From Chloroflexi bacterium UBA4730 (lineage in GTDB: Bacteria; Chloroflexota; Limnocylindria; P2-11E), in NCBI GenBank assembly GCA_002404155.1, contig DHJC01000081.1:4520-68519 (forward strand): a stretch of DNA of 64,000 nt, written 5' to 3'. The position numbers were made by a program, and so were the translations under genes. Below are positions 45,784-53,695 of the stretch, piece after piece; the stretch's first letter is position 1, and each line of letters opens with the position of its first letter. The notes under the pieces are model-generated. The model did not search any database, was not told the origin of the DNA, and saw only the letters and a list, made by a program, of their open reading frames with translations.

Positions 45784-46394
45784 ACATCGCGGATGTGCGC
45801 TTCGACGAGCGCGGCCTCGTTCCGGCGATCGTGCAGGATGCGGGCACCGGCACGGTGCTCATGCTCGCGTGGATGGATCGCGAGTCGATCGAGGCGACCG
45901 GGCGGACCGGCGAGGTCCACTTCCACAGCCGCTCGCGCGACGCCCTCTGGTGGAAGGGCGAGACGAGCGGCAACACGCTCCACGCCGTCGAGCTGCGGAC
46001 GGACTGCGACGGGGACGCCATCCTCGTCCGCGCGCACCCGAAGGGGCCGGTGTGCCACACCGGCAAGGCGACGTGCTGGGGGGACGATCCGGCGCCGCCG
46101 CTCGCGCGGACCCTCTCCGAGCTCGCCGCGCTCCTGCGGGAGCGCAAGCGCGAGCTCCCCGAGCGCTCGTACAGCGCGGAGCTGTTCCGGAAGGGACGCG
46201 GGGCGATCGCCCAGAAGGTCGGCGAAGAGGCGCTGGAACTCGCACTCGCGGCCGTCGCGGAGTCGCCGGAGCGAGCGCTCTCGGAATTCACCGATGTCGT
46301 GTACGCGCTGCTGGTCCTAGCGACGGAGCTCGGGATCGGGGCTGACGATGTCGTGCGGTCGCTCGCGGAGAAGAAACGGGCCGCAGCCCAATGA
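45780..46394 (+). CDS. hisI: Bifunctional phosphoribosyl-AMP cyclohydrolase / phosphoribosyl-ATP pyrophosphatase
   Basis: 204 aa. N-terminal HisI (LVPAIVQD, CHTGK.TCW) and C-terminal HisE (ELPERSYSAELF...). ATG overlaps the hisF stop. Confidence 0.85.
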   Translation: MNIADVRFDERGLVPAIVQDAGTGTVLMLAWMDRESIEATGRTGEVHFHSRSRDALWWKGETSGNTLHAVELRTDCDGDAILVRAHPKGPVCHTGKATCWGDDPAPPLARTLSELAALLRERKRELPERSYSAELFRKGRGAIAQKVGEEALELALAAVAESPERALSEFTDVVYALLVLATELGIGADDVVRSLAEKKRAAAQ

Positions 46395-46545
46395 CCGGAT
46401 CGCCGCGCGTCGTGAAACTCGGCATCCTCGGCGGCGACGGAATCGGTCCGAGGTCGTCGAGGCGGCAGTGGTGGTGCTCGAATCCGCTGCGCCTCGGCCA
46501 GCAGGACGCGCGGCTCAACGGTGTCGTACGAGCGCTCTGATATAA
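46391..46545 (+). pseudogene. 3-isopropylmalate dehydrogenase (leuB-family) 5' fragment, frameshifted and truncated
   Basis: ATG overlaps the hisIE stop (ATGA). MTGSPRVVKLGILGGDGIGP then a 1-nt frameshift to EVVEAAVVVLESAA; homology ends ~46490. The IS21 end lies immediately downstream. Confidence 0.6.
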
Positions 46546-46765
46546 AGGAGACCCTCCGACAGCGACTAGTGGTGGTTGGCTTGATCGCCGCGCACTGTCA
46601 ACGGCGGCCGAAAAGTGACCCACCCTCGGCGGCCGAAAAGTGACCCACCCAAGCCGGGTGTCGTGGTACCCCGCGCGTCGATCCGTCGCCGCTGCGTCGC
46701 TCTGAGCGGCCCGTTTTCCGGTCCGTGGCGCTCGGACGCGTTCCGCGTGGCGCTGGCGACGGATC

Positions 46766-47545
46766 TCAGCGCAGCTGCGCGTTCTCGTCGGGCCGCAGGC
46801 GGGCGCCAGCGAGCTCCTTGCCGCGCAGTCGATAGCTGTCGCCCTTGAGCGAGAGGATCTCGGCGTGGTGCACCAGGCGATCGATCATCGCCGTGGCCAC
46901 GACGTCGTCGCCGAACACCTCGCCCCAGGCCGAGAACGGCTTGTTGCTCGTCATCACCAGCGAGGCCCGCTCATAGCGGCTCGAGACGAGGAGGAACATC
47001 AGGGTGGCGGCCGCGGGATCGAAGGGCACGTACCCGACCTCATCGACGATGACCAGCGGGACCCGGCCGAGCCGCCGCAGCTCCTCGGCGAGCTGTCCGA
47101 GGCGCTGGGCGTCGAGGAGCCGGGCGACCCACTCCGTCGCGGTGGCGAAGGCGACCCGGTGCCCGGCGAGGCAGGCCCGGATCCCAAGCGCGATCGCGAG
47201 GTGGGTCTTCCCGGTGCCGGGCGGGCCGAGCAGCACGACGTTCTCTTTCCCGAGGAGGAAGTCGAGCTGGGCGAGGTGCAGCGCGACCTCTTTCTTCACG
47301 CTCCGCTGGAAGCTCCAGTCGAACTCCTCGAGGGTCTTGCGGCTGGGGAAGCGCGCCGATCGGATCCGCGCGTCGCCGCCGTGGGCCTCGCGCGAGCTGG
47401 TCTCGCTCGCCAGGAGCGCCTCGGCGAAGCGCTCGTATGTCCACTCCTCGGCTCGGGCCCGCTCGGCGAGCTTCGGGAGGGCCCGGGCCGCGGCCGGGGC
47501 CTTGAGCGACCGGAAGCGGTGGGCGAGCTCGGCGGTCTGGGTCAT
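46766..47545 (-). CDS. istB: IS21-family helper ATPase IstB
   Basis: 259 aa with Walker A LLGPPGTGKTHLAIAL and Walker B LVIVDEVGY. Confidence 0.9.
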   Translation of the reverse strand: MTQTAELAHRFRSLKAPAAARALPKLAERARAEEWTYERFAEALLASETSSREAHGGDARIRSARFPSRKTLEEFDWSFQRSVKKEVALHLAQLDFLLGKENVVLLGPPGTGKTHLAIALGIRACLAGHRVAFATATEWVARLLDAQRLGQLAEELRRLGRVPLVIVDEVGYVPFDPAAATLMFLLVSSRYERASLVMTSNKPFSAWGEVFGDDVVATAMIDRLVHHAEILSLKGDSYRLRGKELAGARLRPDENAQLR

Positions 47546-47895
47546 CCGGGGATGAGCGCGTCATATCGCGCAAGGGCCCGCACCTCGACCAGCGGCGGCG
47601 CCGCGCGCCGCTCGCTCAAGATCCGCGCGTGCGCGGGCGCGGTGATCGTGCGATAGCGGGCGAAGGTCCGGAGGTGCCGCGCGACGAGCTCACCGGTGTC
47701 GAGCGCGACGGCAGCGACCTCGCGCGACGAGACGTGCAGCTCGACCCGCCGACCGACGCAGGTTGGATCGAGCGAATAGTCATTGGTGTCGACGCGCGCG
47801 TACGGCTGCGGCGGCACGCGCAGGACCGAGCGCCGGTCGAGGTCCGGGAGCGGCGCGGGCAGCGGCCGGAGCTGCTCGGATGCGTTCCAGGTCAC
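47542..47895 (-). pseudogene. IS21 transposase IstA, C-terminal fragment only
   Basis: A 117-aa ORF overlaps the istB start by 4 nt, as in IS21 istA-istB. Only the IstA C-terminal region is present (~117 of ~400–500 aa). Confidence 0.65.
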
Positions 47896-48169
47896 GCCGG
47901 TTGAGCACGCGATCCACGAGATAACCCTTCTCGACGTCGCGCGCCTTGCACTCTGCCGCGTTCATTGGGCGCAGGACGATGCGGAACGAGCCCACTCGGA
48001 CCCGCAGCCAGGTCCCCTTTCCCTCCAGCGATACGACATCGAGGTTATCGGGCCATGGCTCGGCGCTGAGCTCCTCCATCACAACGCGCTTGATCTCTGC
48101 ACCGACCGGCGTCTTGAGCAGCTTGGCCAAATCCTTCTGCGCAGATGAACTGAGGTCGACTCGGGCCAT
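47780..48169 (-). CDS. RelE/ParE-family type II toxin (3' end fused to or disrupted by the IS21 junction)
   Basis: Toxin core ...GTWLRVRVGSFRIVLRPMNAAECKARDVEKGYLVDRVLNRRDLE. The Ala/Pro-rich tail after ~residue 97 reads into IS sequence. Confidence 0.7.
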   Translation of the reverse strand: MARVDLSSSAQKDLAKLLKTPVGAEIKRVVMEELSAEPWPDNLDVVSLEGKGTWLRVRVGSFRIVLRPMNAAECKARDVEKGYLVDRVLNRRDLERIRAAPAAARAAPGPRPALGPARAAAAVRARRHQ

Positions 48170-48178
48170 TGGGCGTCG

Positions 48179-48490
48179 TTAGCGGCCGCGCTTGGCGGCT
48201 CGTTTCGCCAACTTGCGCGGCCGCGGTTGCGCGTTGAAGAAGGCGCCGGCCTCGATCGTCCGTCCAGCCCGGCTTTCCCGGTCAGCCACCGCTCGACTGC
48301 GCACGAACTCGGGCAGGTGCGCGAGCGCCCAGTCCTCCAGCGCCGACGCCGTGCTCGCCGCATCGAGGGGCACCAGCACAGCCACCGGGTGGCCGGACCG
48401 GGTGATGACCGCTGGACGGCGGGTATCTACCACCCCCGCGACGACCGCACTGGCGCTGCGCCCCAGTTCCTTCACGTTCACCACGCTCAT
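48179..48490 (-). CDS. Phd/YefM-family antitoxin
   Basis: MSVVNVKELGRSASAVVAGVVDTRRPAVITRSGHPVAVLVPLD, the classic Phd/YefM N-terminus. Palindrome GGTACGTACC...GGTACGTA lies just upstream (48500–48540). Confidence 0.8.
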   Translation of the reverse strand: MSVVNVKELGRSASAVVAGVVDTRRPAVITRSGHPVAVLVPLDAASTASALEDWALAHLPEFVRSRAVADRESRAGRTIEAGAFFNAQPRPRKLAKRAAKRGR

Positions 48491-48826
48491 CTCGGCACCT
48501 CCGTCTCGATACGTACCATAGTACATACTCAGGTACGTACCGTCTCGCGGGCCATTCATGGCGGCCCAGGATCCAATGCCCGACTACTGGCTTCGCCAAA
48601 TCCACCGAGACTCGCCATTCCCGCCTTGCCATTTCGGTGCGGCAGTCTTCGCTTCATGCTGCGGCCTGTCCGGTCGCGACCTCCTTTCGAGGTTTCAACG
48701 TGACGCTTCGACGTCGGGGTCTCCCCCTTCGCCGGCCACTTGCTACGGGGCTTCCTGGTCGTTAGCCCGGCGGGACTCACACCCGCCGGTGATCGAGCCC
48801 TTCACAGGGCACACGTGGATTCAGGC

Positions 48827-49501
48827 TTAGAGGTCGAGGGCCTCTGCCAATCCAACCGCGATCATCGCCATGTCTTGTGTGAAGAACTGGCTCGGCCTTG
48901 GCCGGCTCTGCCGCTGATCGAAACGAATCGTGGCGTTGGGCAAGAACGTCGAGAGCACGCAAACGGCTTTGCTCCCGTCGGAGAGAACCGGAAACCCTTG
49001 GCCGCCTCGATTGGGGCTGGTTGTAGTTCTCACGCAGATCGCGCCTCCGACAACGCGGTTGTAGTCGTCGCGGCTGACGACGACGCGCCGTTTTGTTTGT
49101 GGCGGGATACCCGCTGGCGGACCCGCGTAGTAGATCTGGGACCAGTGGGGGTAGTTGATCGGTCCGGGGACCGCGGACGGTGCATGTGGAGGTGTCCCTG
49201 TCAGCCTGGGTATCGCGAGCACATCGCGTACGAAATCCTCAACGGGTCGCAGCTGCACCGCAGTGAGGTTGCCGATCGCGTTTAGGAGCGTGGCCTTGGG
49301 AGTAGCGAAGAGCGGACCGGCGAAGGCGCCCGTGGCAGGAATCGCGATCCGTCCGGTCCCGGCCTCGTCATAAACGAGCGCGCCGCTGACGTCCTGGGTG
49401 TCTGCGTCATTCCACTGATCGTTGGTGAGGAGCAGGTATCCAACAGCACCAGACGCGGCCGGAGATACGAAGAAATAGATCGTTCCTCGCCGAATGGCCA
49501 C
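48827..49501 (-). CDS. Tandem-duplicated MazF/PemK-like toxin (two Kid-fold repeats in one 224-aa polypeptide)
   Basis: Residues ~5–100 (RRGTIYFFVSP...LLTNDQWN...) and ~120–224 (SQIYYAGPP...KRRVVVSRDDYN...GAICVRTTTSP...QFFTQDMAMIAVGLAEALDL) each resemble a complete MazF/PemK domain. Confidence 0.6.
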   Translation of the reverse strand: MAIRRGTIYFFVSPAASGAVGYLLLTNDQWNDADTQDVSGALVYDEAGTGRIAIPATGAFAGPLFATPKATLLNAIGNLTAVQLRPVEDFVRDVLAIPRLTGTPPHAPSAVPGPINYPHWSQIYYAGPPAGIPPQTKRRVVVSRDDYNRVVGGAICVRTTTSPNRGGQGFPVLSDGSKAVCVLSTFLPNATIRFDQRQSRPRPSQFFTQDMAMIAVGLAEALDL

Positions 49502-49507
49502 GCGCCG

Positions 49508-49765
49508 CTAGACGCCGCCCGCTTCGATGGTCCACTGCGTGGTCTGGAGCACATCCTCGTGCAGGTCGTCGTCGCCGGCCCACGCTGCGTACAGCGAAGC
49601 CCGCTCCTGTTGGCGGTGCTGGAGAAGGCGGAACTCGATGCCGTCCCGGGCAAGCTCAGACACCACCGTGCCGATCGGCGCTTCAGCGGCGAAGCCAAGC
49701 GCCCGCTGCTGGGCGCGCGCGGTCCTGAAGACTTCCTCTGCGATGCGGACTTGGCGACCGGGCAT
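49508..49765 (-). CDS. Putative cognate antitoxin of the tandem MazF (unknown family)
   Basis: 85-aa ORF (MPGRQVRIAEEVFRTARAQQRALGFAAEAP...) ending 7 nt upstream of the toxin start. Acidic C-terminus. Confidence 0.4.
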   Translation of the reverse strand: MPGRQVRIAEEVFRTARAQQRALGFAAEAPIGTVVSELARDGIEFRLLQHRQQERASLYAAWAGDDDLHEDVLQTTQWTIEAGGV

Positions 49766-49931
49766 CTTGCTTGCCTCCTGTAACAAATCGTGTGACTAAC
49801 CTGCACCAGATACTGCCACACCCGTGCCACTGCCGCAACGGCCAAATTAGGGCCCTTTTCTCGAGAGATCGACTCCGACCCGTGCGCTGTGAGCGTGCGC
49901 CAGGGCCTTGACCGTGGACCAAAGTCAGGCG

Positions 49932-50024
49932 CTCGCCTCGAGCCAGTGTCGGTGCTCGGCTGCTGTTAGGGCGTCAACTCGGAGGCGTGTCGCGCTGACC
50001 CGAATCCAGCCGGGTCCACGGAAG
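49932..50024. repeat. att-like repeat copy A: ~70-nt arm plus a 24-nt copy of the tRNA-Val 3' end (cgaatccagccgggtccacggaag)
   Basis: Positions 50001..50024 are identical to tRNA-Val 23384..23407. The arm (ctcgagccagtgtcggtgctcggctgctgttagggcgtcaactcggaggcgtg..gctgaccc) recurs at 51221..51288 and partly at 60981..61017. Confidence 0.6.
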
Positions 50025-50137
50025 TCAGAGCATGAGAGAACCGACCGCTCGTCTGATCGTGAAGCGAACCTCATCTCGAACTCGGCGAGGCGTAAAGCGA
50101 GCGCGGTGCTGAATCCTTGCTCCGCCGGCCCAGAGAG

Positions 50138-50683
50138 TCACCCGTCCTGGTCGACCGCGTCCATGTCCTCATCGTCCGCCGAGTCTGGCCGGGTCCGCCC
50201 GTACTGATCCGGTAGCACACCCCAGCCGAAGATCGGGACGATCTCGTGGGGCATCCGGCCATACTCCTCGATTGGATCAGCGTCGCCGCGAAGCACGGTG
50301 CAGCGGTGCTCCCAGCCATCGCCGAAATCGAACAAGTACTCGAACGAATCCCCCACCCCGAGCTCCGCTGCCCCGAGGGTCATCCTGCTCTCGTCAATCT
50401 CGTTCTCGTCGTCTCTGAACTCATCCGTATCAGCCATCCCGATCACACGGCCGTCTGAGAGGCGGAACTCGTGCAGGTGCGAACGGTCCCAGCGTGCGAA
50501 TGCGCGGTCGATCGCCGTCGCGAGCTCCGCGAACGTGTGGGTAGTGCTTGCGAGCAAGTCCCGGCCAGGCGGAGGCGAGAGTGATGCGCCACCCCTGGCC
50601 ACGAGCGCGACACGCAGGATGATCCAGCGCCGAGCGATCGGCGCTCGCGCGGTGATTCTCACTGCGCGCCTGCGCGCTGGCAT
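50138..50683 (-). CDS. pRiA4b ORF-3-like family protein
   Basis: Contains the family-typical DFGDGWEH motif. ATG shares one nucleotide with the hicA stop. Confidence 0.7.
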   Translation of the reverse strand: MPARRRAVRITARAPIARRWIILRVALVARGGASLSPPPGRDLLASTTHTFAELATAIDRAFARWDRSHLHEFRLSDGRVIGMADTDEFRDDENEIDESRMTLGAAELGVGDSFEYLFDFGDGWEHRCTVLRGDADPIEEYGRMPHEIVPIFGWGVLPDQYGRTRPDSADDEDMDAVDQDG

Positions 50684-50892
50684 CAGCGCGCCTTCCGTCC
50701 GCTGTCGGACCAACTCCAGAACTCGTCCCGAGAGACCTCGAGGTCGCGCATGAGGCGACTCAGGGCCTGCGGCCAGAACCCCTGGGACGGATGGCAGTGG
50801 ACGGCGACCTTCTTTCCGGATCGATTCGTGACCATGAGCTGCGGAGAGCCTTCACCTCGCAGGTCTGTTCCGAAGAACTTCAGGAGGTTCAC
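50683..50892 (-). CDS. hicA: HicA-family toxin (start may be a non-ATG codon slightly upstream)
   Basis: LKFFGTDLRGEGSPQLMVTNRSGKKVAVHCHPSQGFWPQALSRLMRDLEVSRDEF matches the HicA pattern (GF..R..GSH..., V.VP.H..L..GTL..IL...G.S.EEF). Confidence 0.65.
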   Translation of the reverse strand: MNLLKFFGTDLRGEGSPQLMVTNRSGKKVAVHCHPSQGFWPQALSRLMRDLEVSRDEFWSWSDSGRKAR

Positions 50893-50942
50893 CAGCTCCC
50901 GATACTTGAGCTCGGGGAGCGATGGCAGCTATGCGCCTCGGC

Positions 50943-51140
50943 TCAGAGTCGGATCAGCTCGACGTGTCGATCGGTCGCCCGCCGCGGCTCCTCCAGCAAG
51001 TCGGGGTAACGCGCCAGGAGCGCGCGAAGGTTGTCCTTTGCGTCCGCCTCAGTGGAGCCCTGTGCGGTGGCCCTCACCTCGGGAGCGAAGGCGATCCAGC
51101 CGTTCTCGCCCGCCCGCTCGGTCGTTATCGCGAGTTCCAC
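50943..51140 (-). CDS. hicB: HicB-family antitoxin
   Basis: MELAITTERAGENGWIAFAPEVRATAQGSTEADAKDNLRALL..., an RNase-H-like HicB N-domain, immediately upstream of hicA. Confidence 0.65.
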   Translation of the reverse strand: MELAITTERAGENGWIAFAPEVRATAQGSTEADAKDNLRALLARYPDLLEEPRRATDRHVELIRL

Positions 51141-51220
51141 GCATTCCTCCTAGGCCGGCGCTTGCTCAACACAGGATATCGCCGCGCCTCGCCCTCCTAC
51201 CTCCGACTTGGCTCTACGCG

Positions 51221-51288
51221 CTCTTCGAGCCAGTGCCGATGTTCGGCCGCTGTTAGAGCGTCAACCCGGAGGCGTGATGCGCTGACCC
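51221..51288. repeat. att-arm repeat copy B (no tRNA core); overlaps the 3' end of the PHP gene
   Basis: About 85% identical to the copy A arm over ~70 nt. Diverges where copy A has the tRNA-derived core. Confidence 0.5.
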
Positions 51289-52640
51289 GACCGCCGCCAG
51301 AGCGGACTGGTGAGGGCCTGCAGTTCGCCGCGATCGTCCGAAAGCTGCGCGCGCACGTAGGCCGCATCGCGCGGGACCGTGTAGCTCTCGGTCCATTCGT
51401 CCACGCCGGTAACAGCCGACGCCGCGATGGAGCCGACGTCCGTGATGAGCAGCATCGCCGCGCCTTGTCCGCCGCGCACGCTGACGCGCACCCCGTCCCC
51501 GCCGGGCTCGAGGTACAGCTGCGGCCCCGCGGGCGACGCCGAGACGAACGTCCGCGCCCCGCGGAGCGCGTCCAGGATCGTGTGCCGATCGAGCCGAGGG
51601 CCGGCAGCCACCCAGGTCGTCGGCGTACCGAGACGCTGCGCGTGTCGCGGGTCGGGATCGTGAGCACGCAGCAGGTGCGTATCGCTGCCGCCGACCGCGG
51701 CGAGCCGTGCCCCTGCACGGAGGCGCGCCTCCCAAAAGCCGACGGCGATCGAGTTCAGGCCCCACGGCCCATTCCAGACCTCCACCGCGTGGATCGATCG
51801 CACTGTCGGGTACTCCCAGGGCGGACCGAACGGCTTCGGATGGTTCACGCTGACGAACGCGCCCGCGGCCGCCGCTTCGGCCATCGCCCGTTCGACCGCA
51901 GACGACTCGGGGGTCCTGAATTCCCACCACCGATCGGTCCCCCAGGCGTTCCAGTGCCCGCCGTAGGTCGTGACCTCGACGCCGGGCACGACGACGGGAG
52001 CACCGTTTCCGCCCGATCCGTACTCCGCGTGGTGCTGGATGTTGTTGTGGTCGGTCACGCCGAGGAACTCAAGGCCCGCCTCCGTGGCCGCATGCAGCAT
52101 CTCGCTCGGCCACGAATCACCGTCCGAGTAGCGGGTGTGGCAGTGCAGATCACCGCGCCACCAACCGGCCCGCGCGGCGGGGAGCTCGGGTCGCCGCGGG
52201 ATCCCCGTTCGCACGAGATCGTTCGGTGGAGCCGCAATCCCGAGGTCGCAACGTACCTCGACGCGCCAGTCGCAACCGCGCGGGCCGACCTTGTACAGGC
52301 CAAGAAGGACGTTCCAGGTCCCGGCGAGGATCGGGCCGGGAGCGTAGGGCGGGGTCGCCCAGTCCTCTCCGATGACGAGCTCGAGCTTGTTGCTCCCGCT
52401 CCACCCGCGGAAGCCGACACTCCCAGTACCGGTCCCTCGCGGATCGAAGATCCCGATATCGAGCGTGTTGCCGCCGAACAGCGCCGGGTCCGAGTCGATC
52501 TGATCGGTGTACTCGTAGCGGATGTGGAGCTGACGATGACCCGGCCCGATCTCGAACGGCACGAGCGAGTACCGCTTCTCGTCCACCGCGGTGAAGCGCC
52601 CGTTGAGGACGAGATCCGGCGCGCGGAGCGCCTCGGTCAA
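51261..52640 (-). CDS. PHP-domain metallophosphoesterase/hydrolase
   Basis: 459 aa with a PHP signature (GDLHCHTRYSDG, ...TDHN..., GGSDTH). Start (TTG) overlaps the ABC ATPase stop by 4 nt. Confidence 0.8.
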   Translation of the reverse strand: MTEALRAPDLVLNGRFTAVDEKRYSLVPFEIGPGHRQLHIRYEYTDQIDSDPALFGGNTLDIGIFDPRGTGTGSVGFRGWSGSNKLELVIGEDWATPPYAPGPILAGTWNVLLGLYKVGPRGCDWRVEVRCDLGIAAPPNDLVRTGIPRRPELPAARAGWWRGDLHCHTRYSDGDSWPSEMLHAATEAGLEFLGVTDHNNIQHHAEYGSGGNGAPVVVPGVEVTTYGGHWNAWGTDRWWEFRTPESSAVERAMAEAAAAGAFVSVNHPKPFGPPWEYPTVRSIHAVEVWNGPWGLNSIAVGFWEARLRAGARLAAVGGSDTHLLRAHDPDPRHAQRLGTPTTWVAAGPRLDRHTILDALRGARTFVSASPAGPQLYLEPGGDGVRVSVRGGQGAAMLLITDVGSIAASAVTGVDEWTESYTVPRDAAYVRAQLSDDRGELQALTSPLWRRSGQRITPPG

Positions 52641-53695
52641 TGGAACGCGCTGCCGCTCGATCGGTCGAAGAGCCGGATCGCGCCCGGCTCGACCGCAAGG
52701 TGCACCGTGCTCCCGGGCTGTGGGCGGACCGCGGGCGCCGCGCGGACCTTCAACGCCTTCTCGCCAACGCGGACGTCGACGATGACCTCGCTTCCGAGCG
52801 GCTCGACGGCGACGACCTCGGCCGCCTGGCCCGCGGTTCCGATCGCGATGGCCTCCGGGCGCAGACCGACCGTGAGCTCGCGGGCCGAGTGGTCACGCGT
52901 AAGCGGCGCGGGCAGCCGCCATCCGTCCGCGGCGACAAGCGTGTCGCCGTCGCGCGTCACCTCGAGGAGATTCATCGGCGGGCTACCGATGAATTCGGCG
53001 ACGAAGAGATTCGCCGGATGGTCGTAGACATCGTCCGGTGTCCCGATCTGCTGCAGCTCGCCGGCGCTGAGGATCGCGATCCGGTTCGCGAGACTCATCG
53101 CTTCCGCCTGATCGTGGGTCACGAAGACCATCGTCGTCTCGAGCTGGCGCTGGAGCGTCTTGAGCTCGGTCCGCGTGTGCACCCTGAGCTTGGCGTCCAG
53201 GTTCGAGAGCGGCTCGTCCATGAGGAAGACCCGGGGCTCGCGGACGATCGCGCGCGCGAGCGCGACCCGCTGCTGCTCGCCGCCCGAAAGCTGCGCGGGC
53301 CGTCGCGGGAGCAGATGTGCGATGCCCAGCATGTCCGCGACGTGGTCGACCCGCTTGTCCTGCTCGGCCCGGCTCATCTTGCGGAGCTTCAACGGGTAGC
53401 GGATGTTCTCGCGCGCCGAAAGATGCGGGTACAACGCGTAGCTTTGGAAGACCAACGCGACATCGCGGTCCTTCGGCTCCCGGCCGACCACGCTCGTCCC
53501 GGCGATCCGGATGTCGCCCCGGTCCGGCTCCTCGAGGCCGGCGAGCATCCGCAACGCGGTCGTCTTCCCGCACCCCGAGGGGCCGAGGAGCACGAGCAGC
53601 TCCCCATCCGCGATGTCCAGGGAGAGGCCGCGCACGGCAGGCGCGCCCTGCGCGGCGAACTGTTTCCAGACGTCCTCGTATTCAACCCGAGCCAC
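52637..53695 (-). CDS. Sugar ABC transporter ATP-binding protein (MalK/UgpC-like)
   Basis: Walker A GPSGCGKTT, signature LSGGEQQRV, Walker B FLMDEPLS, C-terminal TOBE domain. GTG start shares one nucleotide with the permease TAG. Confidence 0.9.
   Translation of the reverse strand: MARVEYEDVWKQFAAQGAPAVRGLSLDIADGELLVLLGPSGCGKTTALRMLAGLEEPDRGDIRIAGTSVVGREPKDRDVALVFQSYALYPHLSARENIRYPLKLRKMSRAEQDKRVDHVADMLGIAHLLPRRPAQLSGGEQQRVALARAIVREPRVFLMDEPLSNLDAKLRVHTRTELKTLQRQLETTMVFVTHDQAEAMSLANRIAILSAGELQQIGTPDDVYDHPANLFVAEFIGSPPMNLLEVTRDGDTLVAADGWRLPAPLTRDHSARELTVGLRPEAIAIGTAGQAAEVVAVEPLGSEVIVDVRVGEKALKVRAAPAVRPQPGSTVHLAVEPGAIRLFDRSSGSAFH

Follow-up and report, generated by a model that had tools for sequence, protein, structure and literature searches.

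The window analysed here, a 64,000-nucleotide stretch of contig DHJC01000081.1 from Chloroflexi bacterium UBA4730, carries on its minus strand a two-gene locus that we describe as a tandem MazF/PemK toxin gene and its presumptive antitoxin gene. The toxin gene (48827..49501) begins with GTG, encodes 224 amino acids and ends with a TAA stop at 48827-48829; its assignment draws on the list of open reading frames, on homologs, on an AF2 model and on Foldseek. An earlier note on this DNA had described a single open reading frame here, and its reading of the sequence is confirmed: the translation contains RRGTIYFFVSP, YLLLTNDQWN and ALVYDE, and the motifs listed for the second half (SQIYYAGPP, RRVVVSRDDYN, ICVRTTTSP and QFFTQDMAMIAVGLAEALDL) were all found in it as well. 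We divide the protein into an N-terminal MazF-like repeat with the full fold (residues 1-100; 49202..49501, minus strand), delimited by profile matches to MazF4 and PF02452; a Pro-rich connector (residues 101-117, TGTPPHAPSAVPGPINY; 49151..49201, minus strand), delimited by the AF2 model and family composition; and a C-terminal MazF-like repeat that is presumed catalytic (residues 118-224; 48830..49150, minus strand), delimited by a C-half profile, PF02452 and hhalign. By exact look-up, HAF09865.1 and HAL25561.1, both named "hypothetical protein" in records from a Chloroflexota MAG, match the toxin protein exactly, and 14 contigs from several sources carry the identical protein.

Directly upstream lies the presumptive antitoxin gene (49508..49765, minus strand; 85 aa, identical with HAF09866.1), which is recognised by synteny, by a family alignment (A5) and by its isoelectric point (pI), and whose stop codon falls 6 nt before the toxin GTG. 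Its start is likely the ATG at 49765, with a Shine-Dalgarno sequence, AGGAGG, 9 nt upstream (49774-49779, minus strand). The open reading frame as listed has 92 aa and a TTG start; because homologs and the NCBI record have the 85-aa form, this version is probably too long. The gene is preceded by a conserved 5' leader or promoter region (49766..49848, minus strand), of which ~85 nt are shared with the homologous locus L003 and beyond which the two sequences are unrelated. Within the leader, direct repeats of TG(T/C)GGCAGT at 49812-49820 and 49829-49837 (minus strand), 17 nt apart, are a tentative candidate for an operator. No sigma-70 consensus promoter was found in a scan, a negative result that says little for Chloroflexota.

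The arrangement recurs wherever the toxin was seen in context. A small gene of 78-107 aa lies directly upstream of the toxin in nine of nine contexts, separated from it by 0-6 nt or overlapping it; the partners are those of L001/L002 (85 aa), L003 (85), L004, L005, L006 (91), L007 (78), L008 (97), L009 (88), L010 (107) and a JGI contig (85). The flanking genes are unlike in each toxin context examined. DNA homology to L003 extends from ~85 nt upstream of the antitoxin ATG to exactly the toxin stop codon, limits that define a cassette of ~1.0 kb (49848 to 48827, minus strand), and the operon has a GC content of 64% versus 70% for the window. An adjacent, co-oriented and conserved partner within varying flanks is the organisation of a type II toxin-antitoxin system, and from these comparisons we read the locus as a mobile two-gene toxin-antitoxin cassette. 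The patch around it holds other mobile and toxin-antitoxin genes, among them a Phd/YefM module, an IS21 remnant, a PRiA4_ORF3 gene and a HicA/HicB-like pair.

Homologs and coding status of the toxin

A word-indexed search recovered nine close full-length homologs of the toxin (222-243 aa, 49-97% identity; alignment A1). A HMMER profile search, exhaustive over 1.84 billion cluster representatives (50% clustering), gathered 74 proteins at E<=1e-3, of which 67 are at E<=1e-10; most are 220-245 aa long and matched over their full length, and 55 full-length members (212-248 aa, down to 24% identity) make up the alignment referred to as A2. Among the shorter entries inspected, P0019, P0026, P0066 and P0069 are N-terminally truncated with the C-terminal helix of the first repeat still present, and P0077 and P0081 are short proteins that match the C-repeat only. 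The hosts so far known for the tandem family are Chloroflexota. A tblastn search for the tandem toxin on plasmids gave no match, and viral predicted structures (BFVD) gave one-domain PemK-like matches only, with query TM <=0.38.

One metagenome protein, P0082 (128 aa), is a complete single-domain relative of the C-half only, with the pattern KRFVIVS...VRLTTSPNR...GFP. The tandem may have arisen from a stand-alone protein of this type, and P0082 fits an origin by duplication of a lone MazF.

Relative to the L003 homolog (89% identity), the toxin codons include 42 synonymous and 25 residue-changing differences, with synonymous/non-synonymous counts of 19/14 in the N-half and 20/8 in the C-half; the frame is under purifying selection, and both halves contribute. 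Together with the full-length homologs and an AF2 pLDDT of 94.7, these codon differences identify a real coding frame. The source is a metagenome-assembled genome, and it could be argued that assembly joined two neighbouring MazF genes, or one MazF gene and an unrelated open reading frame, through a frameshift or the loss of a stop codon. However, the identical protein stands on the 14 contigs of several sources, all 55 of the homologs, from independent samples, are single open reading frames with the same connector, and the single chain folds in AF2 at the pLDDT just given. We therefore give an assembly artefact practically no weight, and a fusion by sequencing error is refuted by the 55-member family alignment. 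Nor are there two genes split by a sequencing-error stop, a possibility that the earlier note had itself raised: every homolog is one open reading frame, and the Pro-rich connector is conserved.

Homology and predicted fold of the two halves

Taken as single sequences, the whole toxin and each of its halves match nothing in Pfam, NCBIfam, PADLOC or the PDB (phmmer), even at E<=10, and a BLASTP comparison of the N-half with the C-half is not significant (E=1.9). The motifs on which the earlier note had relied are thus out of reach of curated models for this sequence, and its assignment as a tandem MazF rests on family profiles. Positions 4-100 of the A2 profile, the N-half, match residues 7-105 of MazF4 (5XE2) with an E of 2.5e-9, and the same half matches MazF6, MazF9, MazF7, S. 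aureus MazF, B. subtilis EndoA/YdcE and B. anthracis MoxT in the PDB at E 1e-7 to 1e-3. Weaker second matches of this profile fall on the C-half, and overall the family profile finds ~20 distinct MazF PDB sequences at E<1e-3. A profile built from the C-half only (A3) matches residues 4-104 of MazF4 (E 1.9e-6) and residues 27-112 of E. coli MazF (E 0.028).

Scans of family members against Pfam lead to the same assignment. PF02452 (Pfam PemK_toxin) is matched by 27 of 51 N-halves (best E 6e-6) and 25 of 51 C-halves (best E 7e-7) when these are scanned alone, and by 38 of the 55 whole proteins (best E 7e-11); membership in this MazF/PemK profile thus holds at the family level and is sub-threshold for the window toxin alone. 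When the N-halves are compared with the C-halves by hhalign, the two align end to end over 100 columns with 98% probability (E 2.3e-13), and a second run gave 97.6% (E 4.5e-12).

The earlier note had seen a MazF pattern in both halves, and the MazF4 profile matches, the PF02452 counts and the alignment of N- with C-halves assign each of them independently to MazF/PemK. Of the checks that it had suggested, the separate domain scan of the halves failed for the window sequence by itself and succeeded for the halves of family members; the internal self-alignment, likewise, was negative by BLASTP and positive by profile-profile comparison in hhalign. That only one half is MazF is ruled out by the separate MazF4 and PF02452 matches for the N- and C-halves. 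On the strength of these profile comparisons, we read the toxin as an internal duplication of a MazF domain, detectable only with profiles because single-sequence comparison of the halves reaches no better than E 1.9.

The predicted structure repeats this layout. With the 55 sequences of A2, AF2 modelled the chain at pLDDT 94.7 and pTM 0.91, and every segment scored at least 50; an earlier run with only 10 close homologs had reached a pLDDT of 50 and left the C-half unmodelled. The model shows the beta1-beta2-alpha-beta3...alpha topology twice: beta1 at residues 7-10 of the N-repeat and 122-130 of the C-repeat, beta2 at 21-24 and 135-141, the alpha element at 28-32 and 145-151, beta3 at 37-44 and 153-160, later strands at 52-54, 59-68 and 73-78 in the N-repeat and at 178-188 in the C-repeat, and the C-terminal helix at 81-94 and 208-221. 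Residues 101-121 between the repeats are without regular secondary structure, and the segment from L95 to W120 spans 19-25 residues and is 23% Pro across the family. In a Foldseek search of the PDB, the best 50 matches are all MazF chains, the first being MazF-mt3 (5HK0; E 1e-4). Target TM scores for the MazF matches are 0.62-0.78 and query TM scores are 0.34-0.40; these query values indicate that each MazF match covers one repeat. The Kid/MazF SH3-like barrel with its C-terminal helix is therefore present by both AF2 and Foldseek. The pTM of 0.91 argues indirectly for a fixed arrangement of the two repeats in the model, and we infer that they would pack within one chain in the manner of a MazF dimer.

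Asymmetry of the repeats, proposed mechanism and known relatives

The two repeats differ first in their catalytic positions. K137, encoded with R138 by the codons AAA CGG (49088..49093, minus strand), aligns with R29 of E. coli MazF and Lys19 of MazF4, the position of the general acid/base; T160, with codon ACA (49022..49024, minus strand), aligns with T52 of E. coli MazF and T48 of B. subtilis, the transition-state stabiliser. In A2, position 137 is K in 54 of 55 members and position 138 is R in 53 of 55, and T160 is T in all 55, the sole invariant column of the family. In MazF toxins the catalytic Arg (or Lys) follows the beta1-beta2 loop, and the catalytic Thr (or Ser) comes after beta3. 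Catalysis by MazF depends on Arg25 and Thr48, and MazF4 has Lys19 in place of the Arg (PMC7354611). In the N-repeat, V20 aligns with R25 of the S. aureus type and with the MazF4 Lys, and Y44 aligns with T48; across the 55 members the first of these columns varies among V, S, I, A, L, R, G and K, and the second among R, Y, V, G, T, A, S and L. The catalytic Arg/Lys and Thr pair is thus present in the C-repeat and lost from the N-repeat.

The repeats differ, moreover, in charge. The pI of the window toxin is 4.7 for its N-half and 9.8 for its C-half, and the family medians are 4.96 and 9.61, respectively. An N-half pI below that of the C-half is found in 52 of 55 members, and an acidic N-half accompanies a basic C-half in 45 of 55. 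The earlier note had anticipated an asymmetric active site or RNA-binding cleft, and the family agrees with it both in the catalytic equivalents, conserved in the C-half only, and in the charge difference between halves in those 52 members. Subfunctionalisation is the simplest reading of these differences: the C-repeat would bind and cleave RNA, and the N-repeat would be kept under selection as a structural partner.

In an alternative reading, the tandem repeats would pair with their counterparts in a second chain, head-to-head or domain-swapped, to give a dimer of tandems with two C-C or N-C grooves. Canonical MazF subunits meet in homotypic interfaces, and a connector segment of 19-25 residues could allow either arrangement. 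A pTM of 0.91 over a two-domain chain of 224 residues, however, implies a fixed intramolecular arrangement, and the loss of catalytic residues and reversal of charge in the N-half of nearly all members are a better fit to a dedicated hetero-partner. We consider pairing between chains unlikely, and retain packing of the two repeats within one chain as the preferred reading.

The upstream partner, the 85-aa protein, has a pI of 5.0, its C-terminal 31 residues have a pI of 4.05, and this acidic last third bears a conserved Tyr and Trp (YAAWAGDDDLHEDV). Partner proteins can be aligned across the family (A5); G24, G42 and Y59 are invariant in them and a (Y)xAWAxDD-acidic segment is conserved, and a word-indexed search with the 85-aa protein found only five close relatives. 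It has no match in Pfam, NCBIfam or PADLOC (single sequence at E<=10, and family profile against Pfam), and its profile gives only chance coiled-coil matches in the PDB (geminin, E 0.3). A DNA-binding N-terminal domain of the known MazE/PemI/Kis type (AbrB or RHH) was not recognised in it, and the pattern of its N-terminus can be read as strand-helix-helix and RHH-like. The suggestion that a short acidic open reading frame upstream is the antitoxin is therefore upheld as to its strict synteny and its pI, and finds no support in family assignment.

These features also bear on the function of the toxin. The MazF/CcdB fold might have been kept by a protein that is no longer an RNase toxin and now serves, after domestication, as a regulator binding RNA or DNA, or else poisons gyrase as CcdB does, with a partner of another type; CcdB, a gyrase poison, shares the Kid/CcdB fold superfamily with MazF. 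This would suit a window protein that falls under all curated family thresholds and an upstream protein unlike any known antitoxin. Against it, every profile and fold match is to a MazF/PemK/Kid RNase, with CcdB absent; no residues of the family are better conserved than those at the catalytic Lys/Arg and Thr positions; and the two genes together have the behaviour of a mobile cassette amid other toxin-antitoxin modules. We judge such a change of function to be quite improbable, and continue with the tandem as a predicted RNase.

Overall, we think it likely that the locus is a tandem-MazF toxin-antitoxin cassette working roughly in the following way. One chain with two MazF-fold domains and a ~17-residue Pro-rich connector probably replaces the canonical MazF homodimer. 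The basic C-repeat, through K137-R138 and T160, would bind and cut single-stranded RNA, and the acidic N-repeat, having lost both catalytic residues, would be a non-catalytic partner that forms the opposite wall of the inter-repeat groove; the result would be a single active site and a single groove for RNA or antitoxin per molecule. MazE places its C-terminal segment in the groove of the MazF dimer, and the 85-aa partner would neutralise the toxin in a similar manner, by inserting its acidic Tyr/Trp C-terminal segment into the groove. Its N-terminal part would dimerise, bind the leader repeats and probably repress the operon. RNase activity and toxicity are here predicted from sequence, and the antitoxin function and binding mode of the partner are proposed by analogy. 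The more specific claim, of an obligately asymmetric single-chain MazF in which an enzyme repeat is joined to a charge-reversed pseudo-subunit, with one site and an antitoxin of an unclassified family, stands for us at an even chance.

Canonical MazF is a symmetric homodimer of ~110-aa subunits and is employed in biotechnology as a sequence-specific RNase. Closest to the tandem by profile is MazF4 (M. tuberculosis Rv1495; PDB 5XE2, 5XE3), the best match of both halves over the full length of MazF4, which shares with the C-repeat a VR(L/T)TT motif and the use of Lys instead of Arg as general acid/base (K137 here). MazF4, however, is a single domain of 105 aa that forms a homodimer with two equivalent sites, whereas the tandem holds two diverged copies in one chain and keeps the Lys/Thr pair only in the second. 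The best structural match, MazF-mt3/MazF6 (M. tuberculosis Rv1991c; 5HK0, 8ZWS, 9IKD), has a similar beta1-beta2 loop motif (GPPSGSQPAKRRP vs GPPAGIPPQTKRR); in Foldseek it reaches E 1e-4 with a target TM of 0.75, a query TM of 0.38, an rmsd of 2.6-2.8 A and 21-23% identity, but it too is a single-domain homodimer and spans only roughly half the query. E. coli MazF/ChpAK, Kid/PemK and B. subtilis EndoA (PF02452) have in common with the tandem the SH3-like barrel, the C-terminal helix, the catalytic Arg/Thr positions and a translationally coupled upstream antitoxin gene, and differ from it as symmetric homodimers of ~110 aa. MazE, Kis and PemI (AbrB or RHH type) are recognisable families, none of which the 85-aa partner matches. 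CcdB differs in turn: CcdB chains are absent from the profile and fold matches, and the residues conserved here are those of the MazF RNases.

In open-access full-text literature, we found no description of a tandem, fused, single-chain or duplicated MazF/PemK, and MazF surveys mention none. In databases the members are called "hypothetical protein", with one exception under a generic MazF name; that one, "mRNA-degrading endonuclease toxin of MazEF" (JGI), came from a profile search of a 5.8-billion-protein index, which otherwise added little. Either half falls short of curated thresholds, which is why members carry a hypothetical label or are annotated with one MazF domain. The tandem MazF is an architectural departure from the homodimeric MazF within the MazF/PemK family, and not a new kind of system. 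It presents a conserved natural family in which the dimer is encoded in one chain, with one repeat devoid of catalytic residues and reversed in charge, and implies that one predicted active site per dimer-equivalent suffices under selection. If this is correct, the family is a natural version of an experiment on whether MazF needs both sites of its dimer, and each side of the RNA cleft is free to evolve, or to be engineered, on its own, for instance towards recognition sequences that are longer or not palindromic. The tandem family would then offer a ready asymmetric scaffold to study and engineer RNA recognition, and would add an unclassified antitoxin family.

Neighbouring mobile and toxin-antitoxin genes

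Several further features lie on either side of the cassette. About 40 nt downstream of the toxin stop and upstream of the Phd/YefM gene, positions 48654-48788 (minus strand) give a full-length match to Rfam RF02003, group-II-D1D4-4 (91.6 bits, gathering 49; E 7e-20). Neither D5/D6 nor other intron models were found in 46000-53000, and no reverse-transcriptase open reading frame is adjacent to the match; it thus appears to be a lone piece of a group II intron. As a part of the cassette it is ruled out by its absence from ten homologous loci.

A second toxin-antitoxin module (47780-48559, minus strand) comprises a Phd/YefM antitoxin gene directly downstream of the toxin (open reading frame 48179-48559, minus strand; Pfam E 8e-9), with its start probably near 48496, followed by a RelE/ParE-like open reading frame of 129 aa (47780-48169, minus strand) that has no Pfam match. 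The 3' end of the latter overlaps a truncated IS21 IstA fragment, so that the insertion may have changed the C-terminus of the RelE/ParE-like product. The IS21 remnant itself (46766-47895, minus strand) consists of an intact IstB gene (46766-47545; Pfam E 6.5e-76) and the C-terminal part only of IstA (47542-47895, minus strand; Mu-transpos_C_2, E 5e-18). Just upstream of it, at 46602-46651 (plus strand), is a 25-nt tandem duplication in perfect register (CGGCGGCCGAAAAGTGACCCACCC[T/A], 96% identity), which could be a target-site or terminal-repeat feature.

On the other side of the cassette, a 74-nt direct repeat occurs at 49930-50003 and 51217-51290 (plus strand; 85% identity), the only two copies in the window, with none expected by chance. 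The copies flank a 1.3-kb segment with a PRiA4_ORF3-family gene (50141-50713, minus strand) and, by sequence reading, a HicA-like open reading frame (50686-50892, minus strand) and a HicB-like one (50946-51140, minus strand). The two copies may mark both ends of an inserted element, or they may be a repeated regulatory or terminator region.
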